A stretch of 64,000 nt of DNA from Naegleria gruberi. Its lineage: Eukaryota. The DNA lies in NCBI GenBank assembly GCA_000004985.1, contig GG738867.1. The stretch is one strand, 5' to 3'. Below the pieces are notes generated by a model. The model was not told the origin of the DNA. It ran no database searches and saw only the letters and a list, made by a program, of their open reading frames with translations. Both the position numbers and the translations under genes were made by a program. Below are positions 15,406 through 30,036 of the stretch, one piece after another (the first letter of the stretch is position 1; the number at the start of each line of letters is the position of its first letter).

Positions 15406-16413
15406 TTAAAAATCTTCATCAGTTGAAGGAGACAAATACAAATTTTGTAATTCTTCTAATTCCCTTTCGTTGATAGACAATTTATATGAAGAAGGTGAAT
15501 TTGAATTTGTTTGAAATGTGATTCTTGGATTCTGTTGAAGAAATAAAGAAGTTGGAATTGTAGAGATAAAGGAAGAGAACTTGATAACATGTAGCATTGT
15601 ACTGACCATTTCCAATTTGAAAGTTTGAGGGAGAACATTGAAAGATAAGTAAATACTATTTGAACAACTCAATTGACTAATCAAATTGAAGAATTGTTGC
15701 TGAGTCATTTTGGAATCAAGTTTTAAAAACAAACATCTGATGAGTTTTTCTGCCTGCTCGTTAGTTGTGTACTTTTCACTCAATGAAGAATCGATCAAGG
15801 AAATTATTCTTTCTGGATTTGTGGCAGTTGTTTGATTTTCAATGAATTTTGAAAGCCATAATTGATGCAGAGGAATTGCCCTTTCTTGATCAGTGATTAG
15901 CTTATCTATACAAATCAAAACTAATTGGGCAATGTAATTATCCATGTGGTTTTCTGGATTTTTCTCCCCGAACTTTCTTAATGTGTGAATTGCAACTGGA
16001 AATGAATTCTGACATTGTAAAGTCCACAATTGTTTCAAATGTTCAAAGTGAGATTTCATTCCAAGCTTGGAATACATATCGTACATTGATGAAAATTCAT
16101 CGGTTTCAATTGTAATGGAGGTGTAAATGGATTTGATAGCTTTTTCACAATGCATGGCTTCAAATTCGGTTGAGCAAATTAGTTTTAGGATGTGTTGATT
16201 ATCTTGTTGTTCAAAAAGACCTCTCAGAACTTCACTTGAATTTGCAATGAAACATCTGTGAGCTTTGATTTCCATAAAACATTCATTCTTGGTATTGATT
16301 AGCTTGTTTACAATAATCTTGATTTGCAAATCGGGAAATGAATTTGGATTATCATACATACAACCTCCTTTGATAGGAAGAGTGAAGAATACTGTATTGT
16401 TATTCTTTTTCAT
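15406..16413 (-). CDS. BTB/POZ-domain protein
   Basis: True ATG at 16413. N-terminal DLQIKIIVNKLINTKNECFMEIKAHRCFIANSSEVLRGLFE...ILKL resembles a BTB fold. Confidence 0.55.
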   Translation of the reverse strand: MKKNNNTVFFTLPIKGGCMYDNPNSFPDLQIKIIVNKLINTKNECFMEIKAHRCFIANSSEVLRGLFEQQDNQHILKLICSTEFEAMHCEKAIKSIYTSITIETDEFSSMYDMYSKLGMKSHFEHLKQLWTLQCQNSFPVAIHTLRKFGEKNPENHMDNYIAQLVLICIDKLITDQERAIPLHQLWLSKFIENQTTATNPERIISLIDSSLSEKYTTNEQAEKLIRCLFLKLDSKMTQQQFFNLISQLSCSNSIYLSFNVLPQTFKLEMVSTMLHVIKFSSFISTIPTSLFLQQNPRITFQTNSNSPSSYKLSINERELEELQNLYLSPSTDEDF

Positions 16414-16662: not shown

Positions 16663-19600
16663 TTATTGTTGTGGACATTGTGGTCCTTTGTTCTGATTCA
16701 TTAAGGCAGCGTTCATCATGAGCATTCTTTGTAGTTCTTCTTGATCTGGATGGAATTCATCAGAGTCATAATCGTCAAAGTCATCATCATCATCATCATA
16801 ATAATCACCACCTCTATAATCATCCTCATCATCCTCCTCATCATCATCATCATCGTCATGTACTGTTGTAGGTAATTGTTGAGAATAGATAGAACGTTGT
16901 TGATATGTTCCCTCACGTCTGGCAGGTTGGTGTCGAATGCTTCTAACAAAACTTTCATCGTCACCAACAACTTCCTCTTCCTTATCACTTTCTTCCTCTC
17001 CAAATAGGACAGCTTGGTGGTCCACTTGTGCGATTTGTTTGATTCTTGGAATAACTCTATTATTATCTTTAAATCTCTCCATTTGTGAACCAAATTTTCT
17101 AGTATTCTTAACTTTGTCTTTTGTAACAACATACATATTCCTAAAGTCAATAACTCTTCCTTCCTTATCATCAGGTAATGGAAATTCTGCATCTTTAGTA
17201 TCTCTTGTCTTTAAGAAAGCACGATATTTCTTTTCAAATAGTTTTGACATCTCTTTTGAATAAGTGGTTTGTCCTTCTCTCCAAATATACGTATTCTTTG
17301 ATTTTTTAAGTCTGGTTCCAGAAATGTATGCATCTTGGAAGAAATTTCTAGTGTGAGGGAAAAAGCTTCCTACGTTTTGAGTACCAGGACTGGCTGTAAT
17401 AAATTTCAGTTTGTTAGATTGTTGTTTGACCTTTTTCTTATTTCCAGATGATTTTGAATCTGGATCCACTATGACCTTAATATCGTTAAGGGCTGTTTTT
17501 ATAAAAGGAGGGTTACTACTATAGTGTCTTATGCCATATAACTTGTTTGAAATCTTTCTACAGACATCTCTCGGAGTACTATAGTCAGCTAATCCGGCTG
17601 TGAAATCCACATAAGGGGCAGAAGGACGAATAAGTTTTCTTTGGGTTTGTTCTAAAGTATTACCTCCTCCAACAGACCACCACATTGAATTCTTTCTAGT
17701 ACAATTTTTAATTCCATTTCTAATTAGTAATATTCTTGCTAGACCAGTGACTTGCTGAATATTCAATTTCTTTTTTCTACCAGTAACGCCCCACCAATCA
17801 CTGTTTTGTTTCAATGAATCAGAATCTGTCAAAAGTTTGTTACATATTTTCTTTTCTGAAAAACCAGGAACACCAATTCTAAAGCCTCTCAATCTTTAAG
17901 AAAATTAATCCTCATTCTAATAAATAAATACTTACGCATATTTTACAAGTCTAGTCTCGAATCTAATTAAGGTATTGATTAGATATCATGAAAAACAAAC
18001 TTACGTTGTAGATTGACGATCTGGATCAACAATATTACACCTTGTAGAGAATGCTTTAATGGCCCTTGGTAAAGCATAAACTTGATGTCCATCATATGCA
18101 ACACAACAACTTGCAACATCAAATCCCATTAGTATTTCTGACATACTCTTGTAAATTCTTAAAATAATTTGTACTTTTCTAAAATTAGGATGGAAAGTAA
18201 AAGTGATTGCATTATCTGTTCTTATGATTGCAATGTCATTTAGCTCAGTCTTTCTGTTGTATGTTTTTTTCAAAAAACTAGAATCTGGAATACTGCTGAC
18301 TTGTTTTTTTAAGTGTTCATAAATGTAAATTATCTTATCTATTGCCCTTTTTTCGTCAATATCATAAAGGAAGATGTCAATATCACTCTTAACAAAATTT
18401 TTCTTGTAGTAAGAATATAAATTTTTTTCTGGACTATCTTCTTCCTTCTTCCTGGACTCCTTAAATGCTACGAGTTTGGAAAATTCTTCGTCTCCAGAAG
18501 ATGTAAAGTAATCACTATTTTCAAGAGTTTCTACTTCATCATTGGATTCATCATCTTCAGTCCAATATGGCTTATCATTTGGATCACTGTATGTATTTTC
18601 CTCAATTTCAAAGTTTTTCTTCTCGGCTTGAGGTTTCTCTTGTTGATCAGCAAGTAATAAGCAGTTTAACACTGAACCTCCAGCGCATGCAATATTTGAC
18701 CAATCGAGGTCTTTCAATAAAAAACATGAAAAAGCATCGAATTGATTTTGGAAAGTTTCTTTTGAATTGCAAATAACTGGGATTGGTGGTTTTTTGATTT
18801 GTTCACGTTTACACAATTCTGCAGCCTCTTTTTCATTTTCAAAGTCGAAAAGAGGGTAAATAGAGGATGGTAGCTCTGTTTTCTTGCACAAATCGGAAGA
18901 TTCATCATTAAATAATTCTATCAAGTGTAGTTTTGGATCTTGTAAAATTGGATTATTTCTTTCTAATAAAGAGTTATACATATCTCTCAAAAAGTCTTCA
19001 TTTTTCTTAATGTTGAGATTAGTTTCACCTAGCAATTCGAAAGGAAACCTAAGTGGATCGAGATGTTCAAGCAAAAATTTAACATTCAATTCTTTTGCCA
19101 AGTTATAAAGTTGCTTTCTTGGTGCTACTTCTTTTGGAATATTAGCTGTAAAGTCATCAGAATTATAACACTCAACTAGTACTCTAAAGGTAGATGGGTC
19201 TCTATCAATGAATATCTCCTCATCGTTTCTTTTTTCTTTACAAAGAGTGGTTAATAAACTGTCACGATTAATAAGTTTTTCAAAACCAATTTCAAATAGT
19301 ACCCCTCTTACATTGAATTTTTTGAGTGGTTTTTCAACTTTCTCATCTAATTCCTTCAATTTATCTCTTAATTTGACTAGCTCAGTGTCTTTATCAGCAA
19401 CATATTTATCAAAAAGCTCCTTCTCTTCTTGTGTCAAATAGACAATATCTCTTGTTAGCAATTTAGATTCTTCTTCATCATGTTTTCTATTCTCATCTGA
19501 TTCATTCTTCTCTTGATTGGAATTTGATAATATTTTTCTATCCTTCTTGATTTTGAGTGCAATAATATTACTCAACTTTTGAGTTCCAAAAAAGTCCGAT

Positions 19601-20271
19601 TCTTCTAAAAGGTTTCGTAATTCTATCAAACTTTCTTCAGATGGGTATTCTTCAGGAATGCCGATATATTTTGTTGATCCTGATGAGAGAGTTAAATAAG
19701 GGTTCATAACAATTAACTTACCTGTTCTAATATGTTCTAAAATTATTGGGAAATAATGTGGGTTTCTATCAGCAATTACAATACATCCATTCTCATCTTT
19801 ATCAATTGGGAATTCAGAGTTGATCATAACTTTCAACATGTTTTCTCTTTGGTTCAGTGTTTTCTTGGTTGTTGTGTAAATACCTCCACCAATATTCAAC
19901 TTGATAATATTCTCAGCAGATGTATCATTCGTTGCACGTAATTCACTCAAAGTTGCAGTATCCGATTTGCTATACAAAGGAATACCAACAATACCTTCCT
20001 TGTTGAATTTATCTACCAAGCCTAAAATTTTAATTCGTTGCTCAAGTGAAGCCTTCTCCTTCTTCATACACATCAGAGGAGTGAAGGAAACTTGTTCAGT
20101 TCTTGGCTGATCACTCTTCAGAAGTGGAGTTGTTGGCGATTCTGTTGCCGATGATGAAGAACTCTCACTTGCCGGTGCTGAATTGGATGGCTTTGTGGAG
20201 GTTCGTTTGGCCAAATAAATCTTTCGTTGTGGGGGCATTTTTTTTATTACTGTCGGTTTTGCAGCCTTCAT
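16663..20271 (-). CDS. Two-exon gene for a protein with two BTB/T1 (KCTD-type tetramerisation) domains, a large C-terminal region of unknown function and an acidic poly-D/E tail. Exons are 20271..18005 and 17893..16663; the intron is 111 nt.
   Basis: The ORF-track starts at 20349 and 17892 are TTG. The first ATG is at 20271. Donor AC|GTAAGT overlaps the apparent stop of the upstream ORF. Acceptor CTTAAAG|A joins in phase (2+1) to the downstream ORF. T1/BTB motifs: IIKLNIGGGIYTTTKKTL...HYFPIILEHIRTGKL and VRGVLFEIGFEKLINRDSLLTTL...FIDRDPSTFRVLVECYN. Confidence 0.55.
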
Positions 20272-20365
20272 TCCAATCAAGGCTCGAACAAAAAAACCAA
20301 GCCTTTGATTCACACTACAAATAATTACAAATAATGAATACAACAACAAGAATATTGGTTTTTAA

Positions 20366-22912
20366 TTAAGCAATGGTACATTTCTTTTTCTTTCTGACAA
20401 TTCTTTCTTTTGGAGGATACATTTGTCGAAAATTACTCAATGAAGAAATGATTTTTGCACCACCCAACACATCAAAAGATCCACCTGATAATCCCTTCTT
20501 TACATCCCATACTACATGTTGAACTGTACAATGAATATTTTCTTGATAGGTGAAAGAGGCATGTGGGAATTTTGTTGTAAGAATTTCAATGATTGTTGGT
20601 TTCATATTTTCTAAATGAGCTAATTCTCCCACAATTATAAAATTGCTAGAGACTTCCACCTTCTTATTCCTCTCACGAATAATAGTTTCGTATTGTGAAA
20701 TTGAATTGAGTAGTGTGCTCAATATATTTGAACCTATATGAATTCTCTTCTGTTTTCCTACATATTTAGGTGTCCAAGTTTGTGAAATATTTACTGGTTC
20801 AATGTTTAACTCTGATTCATTGGTATCAATAGTTGGAGGAATATATGCACTCTTAAGAACATCCAAACTCTTTTCATTGCATTTAGATTCTTCATAAACA
20901 ATGTATTCTCTAACAGTTTCGTGTTCAATCACAGGAATTAAATAAACTCCACTTCTGTTGACTTTCAAAACAGTACAGGTTGGTTTTTGATAGTAAATGG
21001 TTCTAAGTTTTTCCTCATCCACATAAATTACATCAATTTCCAACTCGTCCTAATTAATGATATGTTATTTGTTGATAAATAGTGACAGAAAATACTTACG
21101 AGAATGTTGCTTACTTTTGAAATAATGGAATCTGTCCAAGATAGTGGAACTGCTAACAGCAACGGTGTGAAAAAGCTCTTTTTCAAATCGTCTTGATAAA
21201 GTTGAATAATTAGTTCTTTAAAATAGTCATAATCCAAGATATTCGAATTGCAATCAAGAATAAGATTTTCTTTGGAACAATCACGCTGGAAGACTTGATA
21301 TCTATCACCACACACGAGACTTTTAAATCCATAGGCCAGAACATTAAAGTGGGAACCAACTTTTTCTGCACACAAAGCTGGAGAAGAATAAAATAAAGCC
21401 AAAGATGAAAGTCCAAATCTGTAAAATCCATCAATAAAGTCCAATAAGATGACATCTGAGAATCTATTCTGATATGATCTCGATATAAAAGCATGATACC
21501 AATCGCCTATTGTCTGTTGATATTGATAAGTTGCTTGATTTTCAATTGAAGTAATAACTCCTTCCTCTATTTCTTCTTCGAAGTCTAGATTTTTAATTCC
21601 AATTTCTCGACCAAGTGGAACTATAGGATTGATTGGCCATTTTTGAGAGTATCTTTCTTTCCAAATGTATGAGTGTCTTGTAATGGCATTCAGTTCTCTA
21701 TTAAGCTTGAGAAATGTTTGAGAAATTTCTTCTGCTTTCATAAATGAAAATATGGCATAGAAAGCATCTTCTGAAATTGCATAAATTGTAATTGGTGAAT
21801 CTTCTTTACGAGCCGATTGTTCAATTCGAATGCTTTTTGATTCGTTTGTGTGTAAATCCTGAGCTTGAATAAATTTTTCAGTTGCTAATTTAACATTTCC
21901 TTCCTTCTCTAATTGTTCACTTTCTTCCAATAATTGTAAAACTTTTTGGTATTGACTATTTTCAATGTAATTTTGCTTGTAGACACTCTCAGAATCTATT
22001 CTCTTAAAAATCATTTCAGTTCTCACAACATATTTGAAACCTTCCTTTACATAATCTCCTGAGTGGTAAATATCATGATTAAATATTGCTATGGACCCAG
22101 CTTTTGGTTGAACTGTTAAGAGTTTCTTGAATTTCATTTTTGAAAGGTCTTCATTTGTTTCGTCTGGAATCTTTTTCCAAAAGGTAGTTCCGTAAGGAGA
22201 ATCATCTAAATAAATAAGAATGGTGAATATACTTCTCTCATTGTCATTTCTGACAAAGTGAGAATCCATGTGAGGTTTAAAGAAATTTCCTTCCTTATAT
22301 CTGTTAAATCTCAAACATTCGGATAATTCTATTGGAACCCATTTTCCATTGTTATCAAATCCATATGGCTTCACATTTGTAATATCTTCCTTCTTCATCA
22401 TTGGTCTATTTTCAAAATAATAACATTCAAAAACCACGAGACTGTAAAACCTACACTATCCTATTCCATAATATTTCAGCAACTTTCTTACTAGTTACCA
22501 CTACTCTCTCACTATTTCTATACTCTTTTGAATATTCTCTATCAATCGAATGATACCCCAATTCATCAGTCACATCGATCAAATCTTGACATTCCTCCGG
22601 AGAAAGAACTTGTTCCAACACGAACAAACAATCAAGACAAGTAAATTCTTGTTTCTCATTGCCATGATCATTTGATTGCTGATTATCAAATATTTCATCA
22701 TTATTTAATAAATCAATTTCATAAATATTCGGATCTATGTGAATTTTCTTGTGTGGAATTAAATAGTCAACCCGAGTTGGGGAAGTTTGATCTTTTTGAT
22801 GGGAAACAATGATTGGAACTCTGCGTTGTTGTTGATTTGAAGTAGTTGATAATTCTTCAGTTTCGTCCCAAATATTTGCTTGTAGATGTATGTGTGGTGG
22901 AACTCGATTCAT
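20366..22912 (-). CDS. Fusion protein: an N-terminal prolyl-4-hydroxylase-like 2OG-Fe(II) oxygenase domain, a central F-box-like motif and a C-terminal actin-related (Arp-like) ATPase domain. There is a 50-nt intron (21099..21050) and an apparent 1-nt frameshift near 22440-22452.
   Basis: First ATG at 22912. P4H motifs: LSPEECQDLI, HMDSH (HxD), IFNHDIYHSGDYV (distal His). F-box-like: PITIYAISEDAFYAIFSFMKAEEISQTFLKLNRELNAITRHSYIW. Actin-like: ILLDFIDGFYRFG, PLLLAVPLSW, GGSFDVLGGAKIISSLSNFRQMY (compare actin SVWIGGSILASLSTFQQMW). Intron CTC|GTAAGT...TTAATTAG|GAC is phase 0. The two N-terminal ORFs abut with a +1 shift and no room for an intron. Confidence 0.55.
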
Positions 22913-23547
22913 TTTTTTAATGCAATTGTCTTTAAAAAAATACAACAACTGTTTGAGGGAAACAGTTAGCGTCTTTGGCTAGAGGCCAGGTGCTAGCAGC
23001 ACAGAGGTTGATCAACTACCAAAACTTGAGCATCGGGTTTAGAAGTCAGAGCAAATCGCGTACTCATATTAGCATGGAGGGTAATATAGTACAACTACCT
23101 TACGGTTCAAAGGTTTAAAGTAGATTTGGGTTGATCAACATGGGCAAAAATAAAATAGCTAAGGTAATAGGAGAAGTGGAGAGTAATGATTTAATTATGA
23201 AAAGAATTTGAATGTATTGTAAAACGAAAACACATTGGTTCGTTGATATTGGTGAAGAATTAATTATTAGCATAAGACAGAATGTTCCATCCATTCCGCT
23301 CGGTGTCGTTGAGCAGGCACATAGAAGACTTCCTGGTTAACTCTTATAACATCTTTATTAAGTGTATTCCTATTTATGGATAATCAAAAGGTTTAGTTTC
23401 GTTCCAAATCAAGCTTGAAGGCTAGGCGATAACTCCAATGTCTCTACAAAAGTCCCCTTCATTTTAAATAATGATGTATCTGTGAAAGAAGCGCTGCTTC
23501 CTGCGAACTGTTTACAATTGGAGATCATTGACTTCACGTCTTTGAAG

Positions 23548-23981: not shown

Positions 23982-25115
23982 ATGTCTGTCTATGGAGACT
24001 TTCAAGCTCTCGTTGTTGACAACGGTTCTGGTATATGCAAAGCTGGTTTTGCTGGCGATGATGCTCCAAGAGCTGTCTTTCCTTCAATTGTAGGTAGACT
24101 AAAGCGACAGTCAATCATGATTGGAATGGGTGAAAAGGATGCCTATGTTGGTGATGAAGCTCAATCCAAGAGAGGCATCTTGACCTTAAGGTATCCAATT
24201 GAACACGGTATTGTTACTAATTGGGATGATATGGAAAAGATTTGGCATCACACTTTCTACAATGAATTGAGTGTTGCTCCTGAGGAACATCCAGTCTTGT
24301 TGACTGAAGCTCCTTTGAATACAAAGGCAAATAGAGAAAAGATGACTCAAATCATGTTTGAAACCTTCTCAGTTCCAGCCATGTATATTTCCATTCAAGC
24401 TGTCTTGTCTTTGTATGCTTCTGGTAGAACTACTGGTATAGTTTTAGAATCTGGTGATGGTGTTTCACACACTGTTCCAATTTTTGAAGGTTATTCGTTG
24501 CCACACACCATTTTGAGATTGGATTTGGCTGGTCGTGACTTGACTGATTGCTTGATGAAGATTTTGATGGAAAGAGGTTACTCATTCAACACTACTGCTG
24601 AAAGAGAAATTGTAAGAGATATTAAGGAAAAGCTCTGTTACGTTGCTTTGGATTTCAAAGAAGAAATGAAAGTTGCTGCTGAATCGTCTTCTGTTGAAAA
24701 GTTATATGAATTGCCAGATGGCACTGTTATAACAATTGGTAACGAACGATTCAGATGTACAGAAGTTTTATTCCAACCTAATTTCGTTGGTATGGAAGAT
24801 GCTGGTGTTCATGAAATAGCCTTCAACTCAATTGGTAAATGCGACATTGACATTAGAAAAGAATTGTTTGGAAATGTTGTCTTGTCTGGAGGTACTACCC
24901 TGTTCGAAGGTATTGCTGAAAGGATGACCAAGGAATTGACTGCTTTGGCACCAGCCTCAATGAAGATAAAGGTTGTAGCCCCACCTGAAAGAAAGTACTC
25001 AGTCTGGATTGGAGGCAGTGTCCTCGCGAGCCTTGCAACCTTTCAGCAGATGTGGATATCGAAAGAAGAATATGAGGAGGTTGGTCCTGGTTTTGTTCAT
25101 AGAAAGTGCTTCTAA
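23982..25115 (+). CDS. Actin, single exon, with a divergent N-terminus
   Basis: True ATG at 23982. Roughly 80% identity to conventional actin over 377 aa ([30 protein letters not shown] ... [40 protein letters not shown]). Confidence 0.9.
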
Positions 25116-25324: not shown

Positions 25325-25775
25325 ATTCATCTTTTCAAAATCTTAATATTGAAATATTGAGAGAACATCAAGAGTCATTATCCCAAAATTCTATTGAAAA
25401 TTTGAAACTTGTTGACTTTAATGATTTTGACTTTTTTAAATTTTCTATTATTATTTTGTAAATTCTCAATTTCAGTAAGGAGGAGATGAAACAATTTAGA
25501 ATATATAACATTTAAATGAAAGCCATGAACAAACTACTGTTGAATATTAAGGTAAACTACCAAATTCAATTCATGTTTGAAAATGAAGTTGATTTCGCCA
25601 ACAATTGGAACGGAATTGCGGAGTAGATGAGGACAATTTATAAATAATACCATCCACTCTGGCATCCAACTCATTTTCCAAATGCCACACAAAACAACAA
25701 GTGGTAACCTTCTTAAAAATCATAAAACGTTGCAAATTCATGTTTCTTGTAATCAACTTGAAAGTAGTAAAAAAA

Positions 25776-28700
25776 ATGAGCAGCAACGAAGAAGCACCAA
25801 CTTTAATCAAAAATTCATCTCATAATCAAGATGATGAATTGGAGGATCTTCTCGATGCTCGGAATGAAAATGTTGTGGATGTGTTTAAGGAGGAGATTGA
25901 TGGGTCGTCTTCAGAGCCATTAGAGAATGGAGCTTCTTGGATATCACTCGTGTTCTTTTCATTTGCTGGAAGTTTGATGAGTCTTGGGTTTAGAAAGGCT
26001 GGTGAGAATTATTTGATAAAATTGATCAAACAAATGTTGAATCGAATTGGGATATTTGGTCAGTTTCAGATTAGAAAGGAGGAGGGAATGAATCATGGAG
26101 ATATTCCCAAGTTGGATGAAAGGTTCAAGGCAAACAGGCATTGTGAATTATTCGAAAGACAGTACAGAGAATTATATCATGAGAGAGGTTATTATAGTGA
26201 GGATGGAGGATTTAGGAAGAATTTTGGAACTTTATTGTTGCGAGTGATTGAGAGAGCTTATAGAAATAGAGGATTATATTCAATATCCTTGTGGAAGATT
26301 GCTGAAATGGCATGTTTGTACATGTCACCACTCATTCTCTATATTTTACTCGAGTCAATCAAGGTGGATGATTATGTGAAAAGTGCAATACCAGCAGCAA
26401 CTCAATTTTTAATACCAATTTCTTCCTACGGATTGTTGAATAATGACACTGTCATTACCTCCAATTACACAATGAACAACGAAACAAATTGGTTTCAAGA
26501 GAACTTGCCACTCTCAAATATTTTCTTCCAGTTGACTTTGGTAATTTTATTATTTACTTTCAACTCAATGGCTTCATTGTGCATCCATCAGTATTACTAT
26601 GCTACTTCAAAAATTTGGATTCCACTCATTGGAGCACTTCAAGGTTCAATCTTGCAAAAGCTGAATAGAATCAAGAGTGAGGAAAGAAGAAAATTCAAAA
26701 GTGGTGAATTGAACAATTTATTTGCCACAGATGCCAAAAGATTAGCCATGGATGGTATTGATATTCACGAGGCTTGGCTATTGCCATTGACATTAATTGT
26801 TGGTGTTGTATTGGTTTTCCTATTTTTTGGTTATAGCTCACTTGTTGGTATTCTTGCAATGGTAGTTTGTGGACCTATTCTTCCATTGTTGGGTAAATAT
26901 CAAACTAGTTTTGCTGCCAAAGCTGCCGAATTCAGAGATGAAAGAGTCAAGCACATTAGTGAGGTATTGAATGGTATTAGAATTGTCAAGTTTTATGTTT
27001 TTGAAGACAAGATGAAAGAAAAGGTGAATCAAGCAAGAGGGAAGGAATATTCACTCCTCAAAAAGTATATTACTGTATTGAGTGGATATTGCTTTACTTC
27101 TTCTTTGATTGCTGTTGTTGGAAGTGGAGCCACTTTTGTTACTTTCTATTATGTAGGTGGAAATTTGACCTTACCTAAAATGTTCACTGGTCTAGTGTTG
27201 TTTAGCACCTTTAGATTACCATTATTGTATTTGCCTTGGGTCTTTTCAAACTTGGTTTTGGCCTATGTGAGTGCTAAACGTATTGGTAGATTCTTGTTTT
27301 GTGAAGATACTTTGAATTTACCTCATGATCATGAAAATAAGGCGAATTTGTGGGATTTTGATTCAGAACATACTGAATTGTCATCAATTATGGATAATAA
27401 TTCAGCTATTGAATGTAAAGATGCATCTATTGGATGGTCAGAAGAGGATGCTCCTATTCTCACTGATTTAAATCTGAAAATTGAGAAAGGAAAGCTCTAT
27501 TGTGTAATTGGTAATACTGGTAGTGGAAAATCAACTCTGATCTCCTCAATTTATGGTGAATCTATTGTAAAGAGTGGAAAAGTTCAAGTTAACCCATCAT
27601 GTAATATTTCACTCAGTGATGAAACTCCATGGTTGATCAATGCATCTGTCATGGAAAATATAATTTTTGATAAGAATTTAACTTTTGACAGGGAAAGATA
27701 CAATAGAGTATTGGATGTGTGTCAATTAAGAGACGACCTCAGTCAATTCCCAAATCATGATCAAACCGAAATTGGTTTTTCTGGAATTAACCTTTCAGGA
27801 GGTCAAAAACATAGAATTAGTTTAGCCAGAGCATGTTATAGTAATTCTGAAATTATCTTAATGGATTCCACTCTCAACTCAATTGATGCCAAATTGTGTA
27901 GAAAGATTTTTAATGAATGTATTAGTGGATATTTGAAGGACAGAACTAGAATTCTCGTAACGCACTCGCTGCAGTTGTTGGAAATGGCTGATGAAGTCAT
28001 TGTTTTAGAGAATGGAAAATTGATTGCCAAAGGCCCTCTGAAGGATATTAAGGATTCCTATGACTTTTCCAAACTAATCTCTGAACAGGAAGAAGAACTT
28101 GAAACTGTAGAGAAAGAAGCAATTGAGAAGGAAAAGAAACAAGATGAAAAGAAGGGCCAACTTGTAGCTGTGGAAGATAAGAGCCACGGTGAAGTTAGTT
28201 GGGCTGTCTTTATGGCCTATATCCGTCAGTGTGGAATTTTCTTGACACTTCTCAGTCTCTTTATGAATCTATTATCTATTGGAGCAAAAACAGCAAGTCA
28301 AGTCTGGATATCTGTTATGAATAGTGACCTGCTTGGATTACCTCTGGGTACCTATGTTTGGGTCTTCTTCTCTTTTGGATTAATGGATTGTTTCATCATC
28401 TTCTTTAAGGAGTTAACTTTAGGTTTTGCTACTCTAAGAGGTTCGACCAATTTGCATAGAGGTATGCTGAATAACATTCTAAGAGCTCCAATACAATTCT
28501 TTGATCAGAATCCAGTCGGAAGAGTATTGAATAGATTTACTCAAGATTTAGAAACTTTGGATAATATGGTAATGCCTGCCTCTGATTTTATTGGAAATGT
28601 GTTGAATATTTTCTTTACCCTAACTCTGATATCTATAATCAATCCAATGTTTTTAATTGTGGTTATTCCAATCGGTTTAGCATTTTACTTTATTCAAGAA

Positions 28701-30036
28701 TATTATAGAACTACCTCAAGAGAACTTAGAAGATTGGAATCAATCTCAAAGAGTCCAGTCATGTCACATTTCAATTCATGCCTCGAAGGTGTCAATACTG
28801 TTAAGGCATCGCTTGTACATTCGAATATTTATGCAGATAGTTTTTCAAAGATTGACTTTGCCAACAAACATACCTTTAACAGATTTATGATAAACAGATG
28901 GTTGGGAGTAAGAATTCATCTCAGTAAGTATCTATTCACATTAATAATGTTTCTCATATATTTCACAGTTTCTCAATCAGTTTTGTTCTTCACAGCAATT
29001 TTTGCCATCATTGCCAAAAATACACAAGATATTAGTCCAGCTTTCCTTGCCTTGACTATTTCAAACTCTCTCCAGTTGAGTGATTGTTTCCAAGGTCTGG
29101 TTCGTTCTTTTGTTGAAGTTGAAAGTAATATGACTTGTGTGGAGAGAATTGTTTATTATGCCCAGAGTATCTCACAAGAAGCTGCCTATGACAAAGAAGG
29201 AGATCCAACCACAACCGAATGGCCAACTAAGGGACATATTCAATTAGATAAATTCTCAGTAAGATACAGAGATGATTTAGATCCAGTTTTGAAGAATCTT
29301 GATTTGGATATCAAAGCAGGAACCAAAGTTGGTGTTGTAGGAAGGTAAGTTGTTTAATATTTCTTAACATTTCTAATAATCATAATAGAACTGGAAGTGG
29401 AAAGAGTACTTTATTGATTTCACTGTTCAGATTCCTCGAAGCTAACGAAGGTAAAATCTCCATTGATGGTCAGATATTTCGAGTATTGGTTTGAGAGCTT
29501 TACGTAAAGCTTTATTAATCATTCCCCAACAACCTGTTCTATTCTCTGGATCTATTCGATACAATTTGGATCCTTTTGATGAATTTGAGGATTATGAAAT
29601 TTGGAATGCCCTCGAACGAGTTCACATGAAAGAGAAGATTCAACCACTCCAGCTCTCATTCACCGTTACTGAGAATGGTAGCAATTTTTCAATTGGTGAA
29701 AGACAATTGCTTTCCTTGAGTAGGTGCATTTTGAGGAAGGCAAAGATTATCATCTTTGATGAATCGACTGCATTTGTGGACCATAATAGTGATGCATTGG
29801 TTCAGAAGGTTATCAGAGAGGAATTTAAAGATAGTACCATCATAACTGTTGCTCACAGATTGGACACCATCATTGATTCCGATAGTATTGTCTTTATGAA
29901 GGAGGGTGAGATTATTGAGACTGGAAGTCCTAAGGATTTACTCTTGGATGAAAGATCGAATTTCTCCTCTCTTGTGAGAGAAACTGGTAAACAGTACTCC
30001 GATCATTTGAAGAAGCAAGCTTTTAAACTTCCTTAA
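25776..30036 (+). CDS. ABC transporter, ABCC/MRP subfamily (TMD-NBD-TMD-NBD). Exons are 25776..29344 and 29389..30036; the intron is 44 nt. There is an apparent 1-nt deletion frameshift at about 29471-29473 inside NBD2.
   Basis: The ORF-track start at 25701 is GTG; the ATG is at 25776. NBD1 has Walker [10 protein letters not shown], signature [14 protein letters not shown] and Walker B IILMDS. Splice GGAAG|GTAAGT...CATAATAG|AACTGG restores the NBD2 Walker A ([14 protein letters not shown]). NBD2 has signature [13 protein letters not shown], Walker [10 protein letters not shown] and H-loop TVAHRL. Expected GKISIDG[12 protein letters not shown] is split across two frames. Confidence 0.8.

Follow-up and report, generated by a model that had tools for sequence, protein, structure and literature searches.

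The stretch of DNA analysed here, hereafter the window, comprises 64,000 nucleotides of contig GG738867.1 from Naegleria gruberi (assembly GCA_000004985.1), and is AT-rich (33% GC) and clearly eukaryotic. Between positions 22912 and 20366 its minus strand carries a fusion gene of three exons and two introns that encodes one protein of 815 amino acids (aa), in which a prolyl-4-hydroxylase (P4H)-type 2-oxoglutarate (2OG)-Fe(II) oxygenase, an F-box and an actin-like domain follow one another. A first-pass annotation, made by a model from the sequence, had put forward the same arrangement as a single gene; its unity is borne out by a stop-free spliced coding sequence of 2448 nt and by conserved introns, and the order of oxygenase, F-box and actin-like domain is confirmed by the assignments of all three domains.

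The whole gene (20366-22912, minus strand) runs from an ATG at 22912 to a TAA at 20368-20366. The start previously placed at 22948 is the mechanical TTG start of the open reading frame, the first ATG lying at 22912. Exon 1 (22455-22912, minus strand) encodes aa 1-152 plus 2 nt, with a low-complexity N-terminus and the beginning of the oxygenase domain (its N-terminal helices and initial strands); the N-terminal parts of paralogues align here, and aa 1-167 of P0004, a paralogue from N. lovaniensis, align to 22921-22442. Intron 1 (22454-22406, minus strand) has 49 nt, reads GTAGG..ATAG and is in phase 2. Exon 2 (22405-21100, minus strand; aa 153-588) holds the oxygenase core, a helical linker, the F-box and the start of the actin-like domain. 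It is followed by intron 2 (21099-21050, minus strand; 50 nt, GTAAGT..TTAG), the phase-0 intron that was already described in the first-pass annotation, and by exon 3 (21049-20366, minus strand), which encodes the rest of the actin-like domain and a CaaX tail (aa 589-815) and ends with the TAA stop. The other two frames of the spliced coding sequence contain 50 and 77 stops, with ~66 expected from composition, and the chance of a stop-free frame of 815 codons is P ~8e-31.

Upstream of exon 2, a +1 frameshift had been suspected at about 22440-22452. The change of frame is real, its cause being not a frameshift but the 49-nt GT..AG intron at a conserved position. After splicing of intron 1 the junction reads ...WNRIV|PMMKKED, and in an alignment with six full-length paralogues the same site is uninterrupted, with the consensus WxRI(V/Q/K)P(F/Y/H)(L/M/I) (for example ...WARIVPFM and ...WSRIVPFL). 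Moreover, the NCBI gene model of P0004 has introns at the identical two positions and phases as the fusion gene. In both genes intron 1 splits RI|V in phase 2 and starts with GTAGGT, and intron 2 follows ...L| in phase 0, ahead of the ...IP.V.FVD strand. We therefore take 22454-22406 to be an intron, since its junction matches the uninterrupted paralogues and the same intron is annotated in P0004. A third intron, found in P0004 only (62 nt, phase 0, L001 5688-5749), splits the iron-binding His-x-Asp motif between KPHM and D and is without counterpart in the window gene; introns have thus been gained or lost within the family, with two positions conserved. The gene is intact and presents no pseudogene problem, and resequencing is unnecessary.

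The best database match to the window protein is a "predicted protein" of N. gruberi, P0001 (662 aa, 58% identity), and the next matches are paralogues of N. lovaniensis, N. gruberi, N. fowleri and Willaertia magna (33-40% identity). The model of P0001 begins MKKED..., that is, at the first methionine after the position of intron 1. Because it begins directly after this site, the public N. gruberi model probably lacks exon 1, and with it some 150 residues, among them the N-terminal part of the oxygenase. The record for the locus is thereby corrected on two counts, in that there is no frameshift and that the public orthologue model appears to be without its first exon. Identity between the window protein and the N. 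gruberi orthologue falls from 93% in the oxygenase core to 60% in the F-box and 49% in the actin-like part, and constraint is much stronger on the oxygenase than on the actin-like part. In one further relative, P0005 of N. fowleri (FDP41_008733), the linker and the first half of the F-box are missing (A1 columns ~435-490), both being present in all other members; this gap looks like a mis-predicted intron in the annotation and not a real deletion.

The oxygenase domain (21991-22654, minus strand; aa 87-291, split by intron 1) is recognised in the window protein by Pfam family PF13640 (2OG-FeII_Oxy_3), at aa 185-280 and with 33.9 bits over a cut-off of 27 (E 6e-8). The iron ligands, identified from alignment columns, are H198 (22272-22270), D200 (22266-22264) and H267 (22065-22063), all on the minus strand, and the three columns are invariant in alignments of 9, 28, 29 and 62 members. 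Ten residues past the distal histidine lies the 2OG-binding residue K277 (22035-22033, minus strand), in a column where Lys is invariant in the family alignments and which is aligned by HMMER with the Lys of Bacillus anthracis P4H. The PF13640 match and the invariant H-x-D...H...K uphold the earlier description of a P4H-type 2OG oxygenase with HxD...H.

To which class of P4H the domain belongs was addressed with profiles of increasing depth against the PDB. A 29-sequence oxygenase profile matched B. anthracis P4H (6e-12), Chlamydomonas P4H-1 (9e-9), PBCV-1 P4H (9e-7) and human P4H-TM (3e-6), shallower queries giving only marginal P4H matches (E 0.36 for the domain alone, E 0.002 for a 7-sequence profile) and a phmmer search with the window protein alone giving no match. 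With both the 7- and the 29-sequence profiles, no chain of PHD2, PhyA or OGFOD1 was among the PDB matches at E<=10. By these profiles the oxygenase is assigned to the P4H class, of the collagen, algal and viral type and not of the PhyA type. With invariant ligands and a core that shares 93% identity with the orthologue, it is very probably catalytically active. Structures were modelled for the paralogue P0004 and the orthologue P0001; the oxygenase part was of low confidence in both and was set aside.

A conserved helical linker (21796-21990, minus strand; aa 292-356) with the pattern ...Y..VK.LVDES.ELEK.G....ST.KY..A..L... connects the oxygenase to the F-box. It forms two long helices in both models and gave no family match. 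The F-box itself (21628-21795, minus strand; aa 357-412, ...ISEDAFYAIFSFMKAEEISQTFLKLNRELNAITRHSYIWKERYSQKW), noted earlier as an F-box-like motif, is confirmed through a family profile and a hidden Markov model (HMM) built from paralogues only. The F-box family profile, covering a 58-residue segment, matched FBXL5 (3e-5), Cdc4 (5e-5), several FBXWs and KDM2B (0.035) in the PDB, and the paralogue-only HMM finds the F-box of the window protein at aa 364-410 with 56 bits. Likewise, the Pfam F-box-like domain is detected in six of nine close relatives (best 1e-6) and in 43 of the 62 long relatives described below. The window F-box carries Ile-Ser where the canonical sequence has Leu-Pro, which the N. 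gruberi orthologue retains. Between the F-box and the actin fold stands a further conserved element, the connector DWYHAF..R...E. The F-box and the actin fold were assigned in the window protein by family profiles because Pfam, applied to the single protein, shows PF13640 only.

The C-terminal part of the protein is an actin-fold, actin-related protein (Arp)-like domain (20390-21519, minus strand; aa 449-808, split by intron 2) with degenerate nucleotide motifs. A family profile of this part finds Arp9 and many actins at ~1e-12, the match extending over residues 5-367 of actin, and the paralogue-only HMM covers the window domain along its whole length (aa 451-799, 192 bits, HMM positions 4-384 of 392). 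Pfam Actin (PF00022) is detected in seven of nine close relatives (best 2e-17) and in 29 of the 62 long relatives (best 9e-36), and in the Acanthamoeba member at 1e-60; the link of the window copy to Pfam Actin is transitive, through the paralogue HMM. Furthermore, the AlphaFold model of P0004 has a predicted local distance difference test (pLDDT) score of 80-93 in the actin part, and Foldseek aligned it with actin at E 4e-20 and a template modelling (TM) score of 0.79 over ~390 columns. The domain is a complete actin fold, nearer to the actins and Arps of eukaryotes than to MreB, ParM or Hsp70. Both actin motifs that had been pointed out before align as claimed, LLDFIDGFYRFG with the phosphate-1 loop of actin and GGAKIISSLSNFRQMY with the C-terminal signature.

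The nucleotide-binding residues were compared with the actin reference motifs D11-x-G13-S14-G15, Q137, D154-x-G156-D157-G158, H161 and G301-G302-T303. In the window protein the phosphate-1 loop reads D-F-I-D-G against D-N-G-S-G in actin, and Q137 is replaced by Glu. The acidic residues of the phosphate-2 loop are gone, one alignment giving Val for D154, Arg for G156 and Ser for D157 (a second alignment is shifted by one column there); H161 is Tyr, and the third motif has become G-E, without T303. Across the family, D11, G13, G156 and the GG pair alone are mostly kept. ATP hydrolysis is unlikely to be a conserved function of this domain. Conservation of the C-terminal helix that borders actin's barbed-end cleft (GG..I..L..F.Q.) is good among the copies from Naegleria and Willaertia.

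The protein ends in a polybasic stretch and a CaaX box (20369-20398, minus strand), read from the sequence as VRKKKK-CTIA. The orthologue P0001 ends in KKKEKR-CTIA, and the CaaX ending is absent from all paralogues. The tail is probably a farnesylation and membrane-targeting signal, as predicted from the motif.

The distribution of the family was determined by an exhaustive profile search of 1.84 billion representatives, with a threshold of E<=1e-30. This returned 288 proteins, and most of the best 150 match the oxygenase-linker-F-box core. Among the 62 representatives of 600-1100 aa, PF13640 was found in all 62, F-box-like in 43 and Pfam Actin in 29, and a few carry ankyrin, rhodanese, NADAR, Macro or FYVE domains, replacing the other domains or standing besides them. 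Dictyostelid members come from D. discoideum, D. cf. discoideum, D. citrinum, D. firmibasis, D. purpureum, Polysphondylium, Heterostelium, Tieghemostelium, Acytostelium and Cavenderia, and other amoebozoan members from Physarum, Acanthamoeba, Amoeba proteus, Arcella, Pyxidicula, Stenamoeba, Dracoamoeba and Soliformovum. Beyond the Amoebozoa, members are found in the chytrids Nowakowskiella and Rhizophlyctis, in the centrohelid Pterocystis, and in Naegleria and Willaertia. The architecture is thus not a lineage-specific peculiarity, being widespread in amoebozoans, chytrids and a centrohelid. With D. discoideum orthologues at hand, among them P0172 (ACTFIR_000488), the family is testable in a tractable model.

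All named members are "hypothetical" or bear automatic domain names only, and the window gene is a further member of a family that is already in public databases, unannotated. In the searchable literature (subscription journals being outside this scope), we found no description of the oxygenase/F-box/actin architecture, in agreement with the earlier remark that no description of the combination was known; the actinome paper contains nothing on the three-domain family, nor do the main text and one supplementary file of the Dictyostelium F-box paper. None of the ~35 named members, a small sample, is from an animal, plant or yeast. All of them come from Amoebozoa, Heterolobosea, chytrids or a centrohelid, lineages with crawling or amoeboid cells.

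Some observations bear on the evolution of the family. In D. cf. discoideum two members that are 90% identical, P0066 and P0173 (ACTFIZ_002478 and ACTFIZ_002477), have consecutive locus tags on one contig, which suggests a tandem duplicate pair of the three-domain gene, and D. firmibasis also has two copies. In other members the oxygenase and F-box core is found with alternative partners (P0020, P0022, P0028/P0041 and P0053), namely NADAR (in Pyxidicula), C-terminal ankyrin repeats, N-terminal rhodanese and a 2127-aa D. purpureum protein, suggesting that the family is modular and its accessory domains exchangeable.

The window also contains a genuine actin gene (23982-25115, plus strand; Pfam Actin 1e-143), arranged head-to-head with the fusion gene at a distance of 1069 bp from the ATG of the latter; this actin is divergent, with VLESGDG in place of the canonical VLDSGDG. 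Directly downstream of the fusion gene, a gene at 18004-20274 (minus strand) encodes two BTB_2 domains (2.6e-17), and a second BTB protein is encoded at 15409-16413 (minus strand). Three genes of cullin-adaptor type (F-box, BTB, BTB) thus lie within ~7.5 kb, a cluster that may have arisen by coincidence in a BTB-rich genome. An ABC transporter open reading frame at 25701-29348 (plus strand; ABC_membrane 3e-51, ABC_tran 4e-19) is unrelated to the fusion gene.

Taken together, these features lead us to propose that the protein is an F-box protein docking onto Skp1, in which an active hydroxylase is combined with a pseudo-actin module for reception or localisation, a proposal that as a whole we give about an even chance of being right. 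The N-terminal collagen-type P4H-like oxygenase would hydroxylate its targets in a manner dependent on O2 and 2OG, and the central F-box would dock the protein onto Skp1, in either a Skp1-cullin-F-box (SCF) ubiquitin ligase or a non-SCF Skp1 complex. The C-terminal actin fold, its catalytic ATPase residues lost, sits where F-box proteins normally carry their substrate-recognition domain. It most likely acts as the binding or targeting part, an actin mimic for actin, Arps or actin-binding proteins, and not as a polymerising ATPase; a receptor role is proposed because the succession of F-box, helical connector and globular domain is the layout of F-box substrate receptors. Hydroxylation and Skp1-dependent ubiquitination, or Skp1-dependent control of the level of the enzyme, would thereby be joined on targets picked by the pseudo-actin module. 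In this orthologue pair only, the polybasic-CaaX tail would place the protein at a membrane.

Several points weigh against this proposal. A Pfam scan of the window protein shows neither F-box nor Actin, even at E<=10, and binding of Skp1 by the window copy may be weakened by the Ile-Ser that stands for Leu-Pro. About half of the long relatives are without a Pfam-detectable actin domain, and the barbed-end-cleft positions vary in amoebozoan and chytrid copies, so that they are not conserved family-wide. In both structural models the oxygenase part has a pLDDT mostly <60, and substrate-binding features are not readable from it. Moreover, in JcdI/Fbxo13, an O2-dependent JmjC dioxygenase of Dictyostelium with an F-box through which it binds Skp1 (PMC9485057), the F-box is dispensable for the O2-sensitising phenotype and may mainly control the level of the protein (PMC9485057). 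Given this dispensability, the receptor role of the C-terminal module is suggested by analogy only.

The same JcdI result is consistent with an alternative in which the F-box would be a regulatory handle. The protein would itself be an SCF substrate or a Skp1-stabilised client, and the oxygenase and actin-like domain would act on the actin cytoskeleton or cortex, for example through hydroxylation of actin or its binding proteins, and the protein would not serve as a ligase receptor. Besides JcdI, whose F-box appears to control abundance, this is favoured by the suggestion that Fbxo-type proteins may themselves be substrates (PMC9485057) and by a report that PHD3 hydroxylates actin on proline (PMC4161513). 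Constraint on the oxygenase also far exceeds that on the remainder of the protein, and the CaaX and polybasic tail suggests a cortical location. However, PHD3 and actin are among the non-HIF enzyme-substrate pairs that were not reproduced with recombinant enzymes (PMC6739866). Furthermore, an actin fold that comes right after the F-box, set off from it by a conserved helical connector, corresponds to the classical layout of a receptor, and the F-box has been kept in most members over >1 billion years of divergence. We regard this alternative as a serious possibility, although a doubtful one.

In a second alternative, put forward by the first-pass annotation by analogy with PhyA, the P4H would be a Skp1 prolyl hydroxylase and the F-box would tether it to Skp1 as its own substrate. 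In its favour, the F-box is real and binding of Skp1 is what F-boxes do, the oxygenase falls within the broad structural family of prolyl hydroxylases, and cytoplasmic hydroxylation of Skp1 does occur in protists (PMC9485057, PMC7864055). The residue that binds 2OG argues otherwise, an invariant Lys in the family as against Arg276 in Dictyostelium PhyA, which binds the C5 carboxylate of 2OG (PMC7864055). The profiles, too, match collagen-type P4Hs, with no PHD or PhyA chain at E<=10. Dictyostelids keep the three-domain family alongside PhyA, so that the family is not a substitute for it, and a pathway for the modification of Skp1 was sought in Naegleria without result. The C-terminal region of Skp1 forms much of the F-box-binding surface in SCF structures, and docking through an F-box would therefore probably mask the Pro143 segment rather than present it. 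This proline, the target of PhyA, belongs to the last 40 residues of Skp1, a segment that is disordered when Skp1 is free (PMC7864055). Collagen-type class, Lys in place of Arg and coexistence with PhyA thus speak against the Skp1-substrate analogy, and we consider it very unlikely.

Finally, the possibility that the gene is an artefact or pseudogene, with two or three adjacent genes read as one or a decaying, frameshifted copy, could draw on the shift of frame at 22454-22406, on the F-box and Actin domains being invisible to Pfam in the window copy and on the Ile-Ser in place of the F-box Leu-Pro, but is already effectively refuted by the absence of any internal stop in 815 codons (~66 expected), by both frame changes being GT..AG introns at positions conserved in an annotated paralogue, by the same three-domain order in dozens of species from several supergroups, and by catalytic residues that are all intact in an oxygenase 93% identical to that of the orthologue.

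The proposal of a Skp1-docking hydroxylase with a pseudo-actin module can be carried further, to an ancient module of amoeboid cells in which the actin mimic would be an SCF substrate receptor and the built-in prolyl hydroxylase would make capture or turnover dependent on O2 and 2-oxoglutarate. In this specific form we consider it quite unlikely. If it were true, O2 and metabolic state would be coupled directly to the actin cytoskeleton, and the distribution of the family would track crawling, pseudopod-based behaviour.

Each part of the protein has counterparts among known systems. For the actin-like domain the top structural and profile matches are divergent nuclear and axonemal Arps, namely Arp4, Arp7, Arp9 and kinetoplastid actin-like proteins. 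Divergent Arps are non-polymerising actin folds that serve as structural or recognition modules in larger complexes, some with impaired ATPase sites. They differ from the present family in being stand-alone proteins, without fusion to an F-box or an enzyme, and the three-domain family is not orthologous to any numbered Arp; unlike the divergent Arps, the Acanthamoeba member has an actin domain that is closest to conventional actin (Pfam Actin 1e-60). Filactin resembles the family in being a large multi-domain amoebal protein that ends in an actin domain, but this domain is highly similar to conventional actin, and the N-terminal part of filactin is unrelated to oxygenases or F-boxes.

The oxygenase is most like the collagen-type P4Hs (B. 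anthracis P4H, Chlamydomonas P4H-1, PBCV-1 P4H and human P4H-TM), which gave the best profile matches and share PF13640 and the His-x-Asp...His...Lys residues. These enzymes are stand-alone, being secreted, resident in the endoplasmic reticulum or viral, and act on proline-rich repeats, and none is fused to an F-box or to actin. PhyA and the HIF prolyl hydroxylases (HIF-PHDs) share with the family the broad prolyl-hydroxylase structural family, and are cytoplasmic with a functional link to Skp1/SCF, but neither gives a detectable profile match to the family oxygenase. PhyA, moreover, uses Arg for 2OG (PMC7864055), has no F-box or actin domain, and coexists with the three-domain family in dictyostelids.

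With respect to the combination of domains, JcdI/Fbxo13 is the nearest functional precedent and KDM2A and KDM2B are the animal analogues. KDM2A and KDM2B (FBXL11 and FBXL10) are nuclear JmjC demethylases with leucine-rich repeats (LRRs) and chromatin-reader domains. Their architecture (JmjC, F-box and LRR) likewise combines a 2OG oxygenase with an F-box on a single chain and places a recognition domain after the F-box, and the F-box of KDM2B is itself among the PDB matches of the family F-box profile; they have no actin fold. JcdI/Fbxo13, called the first F-box protein found to be conserved across protists (PMC9485057), shares with the family an F-box, an O2-dependent Fe(II)/2OG dioxygenase and conservation across protists, and occurs in the same organisms, the dictyostelids. 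Its dioxygenase, however, is of the JmjC class and C-terminal to the F-box, whereas here a PF13640 double-stranded beta-helix is N-terminal to the F-box and the actin fold follows, and the two oxygenase domains are not homologous at the family level. The fusion of a dioxygenase with an F-box therefore has precedents, in JcdI/Fbxo13 (PMC9485057) and KDM2B. Such dioxygenase-bearing F-box proteins are rare and informative, joining the sensing of O2 and metabolites to protein turnover, and to them the present family adds an oxygenase of another class, the collagen-type P4H, and an actin fold at the place of the domain for substrate recognition.

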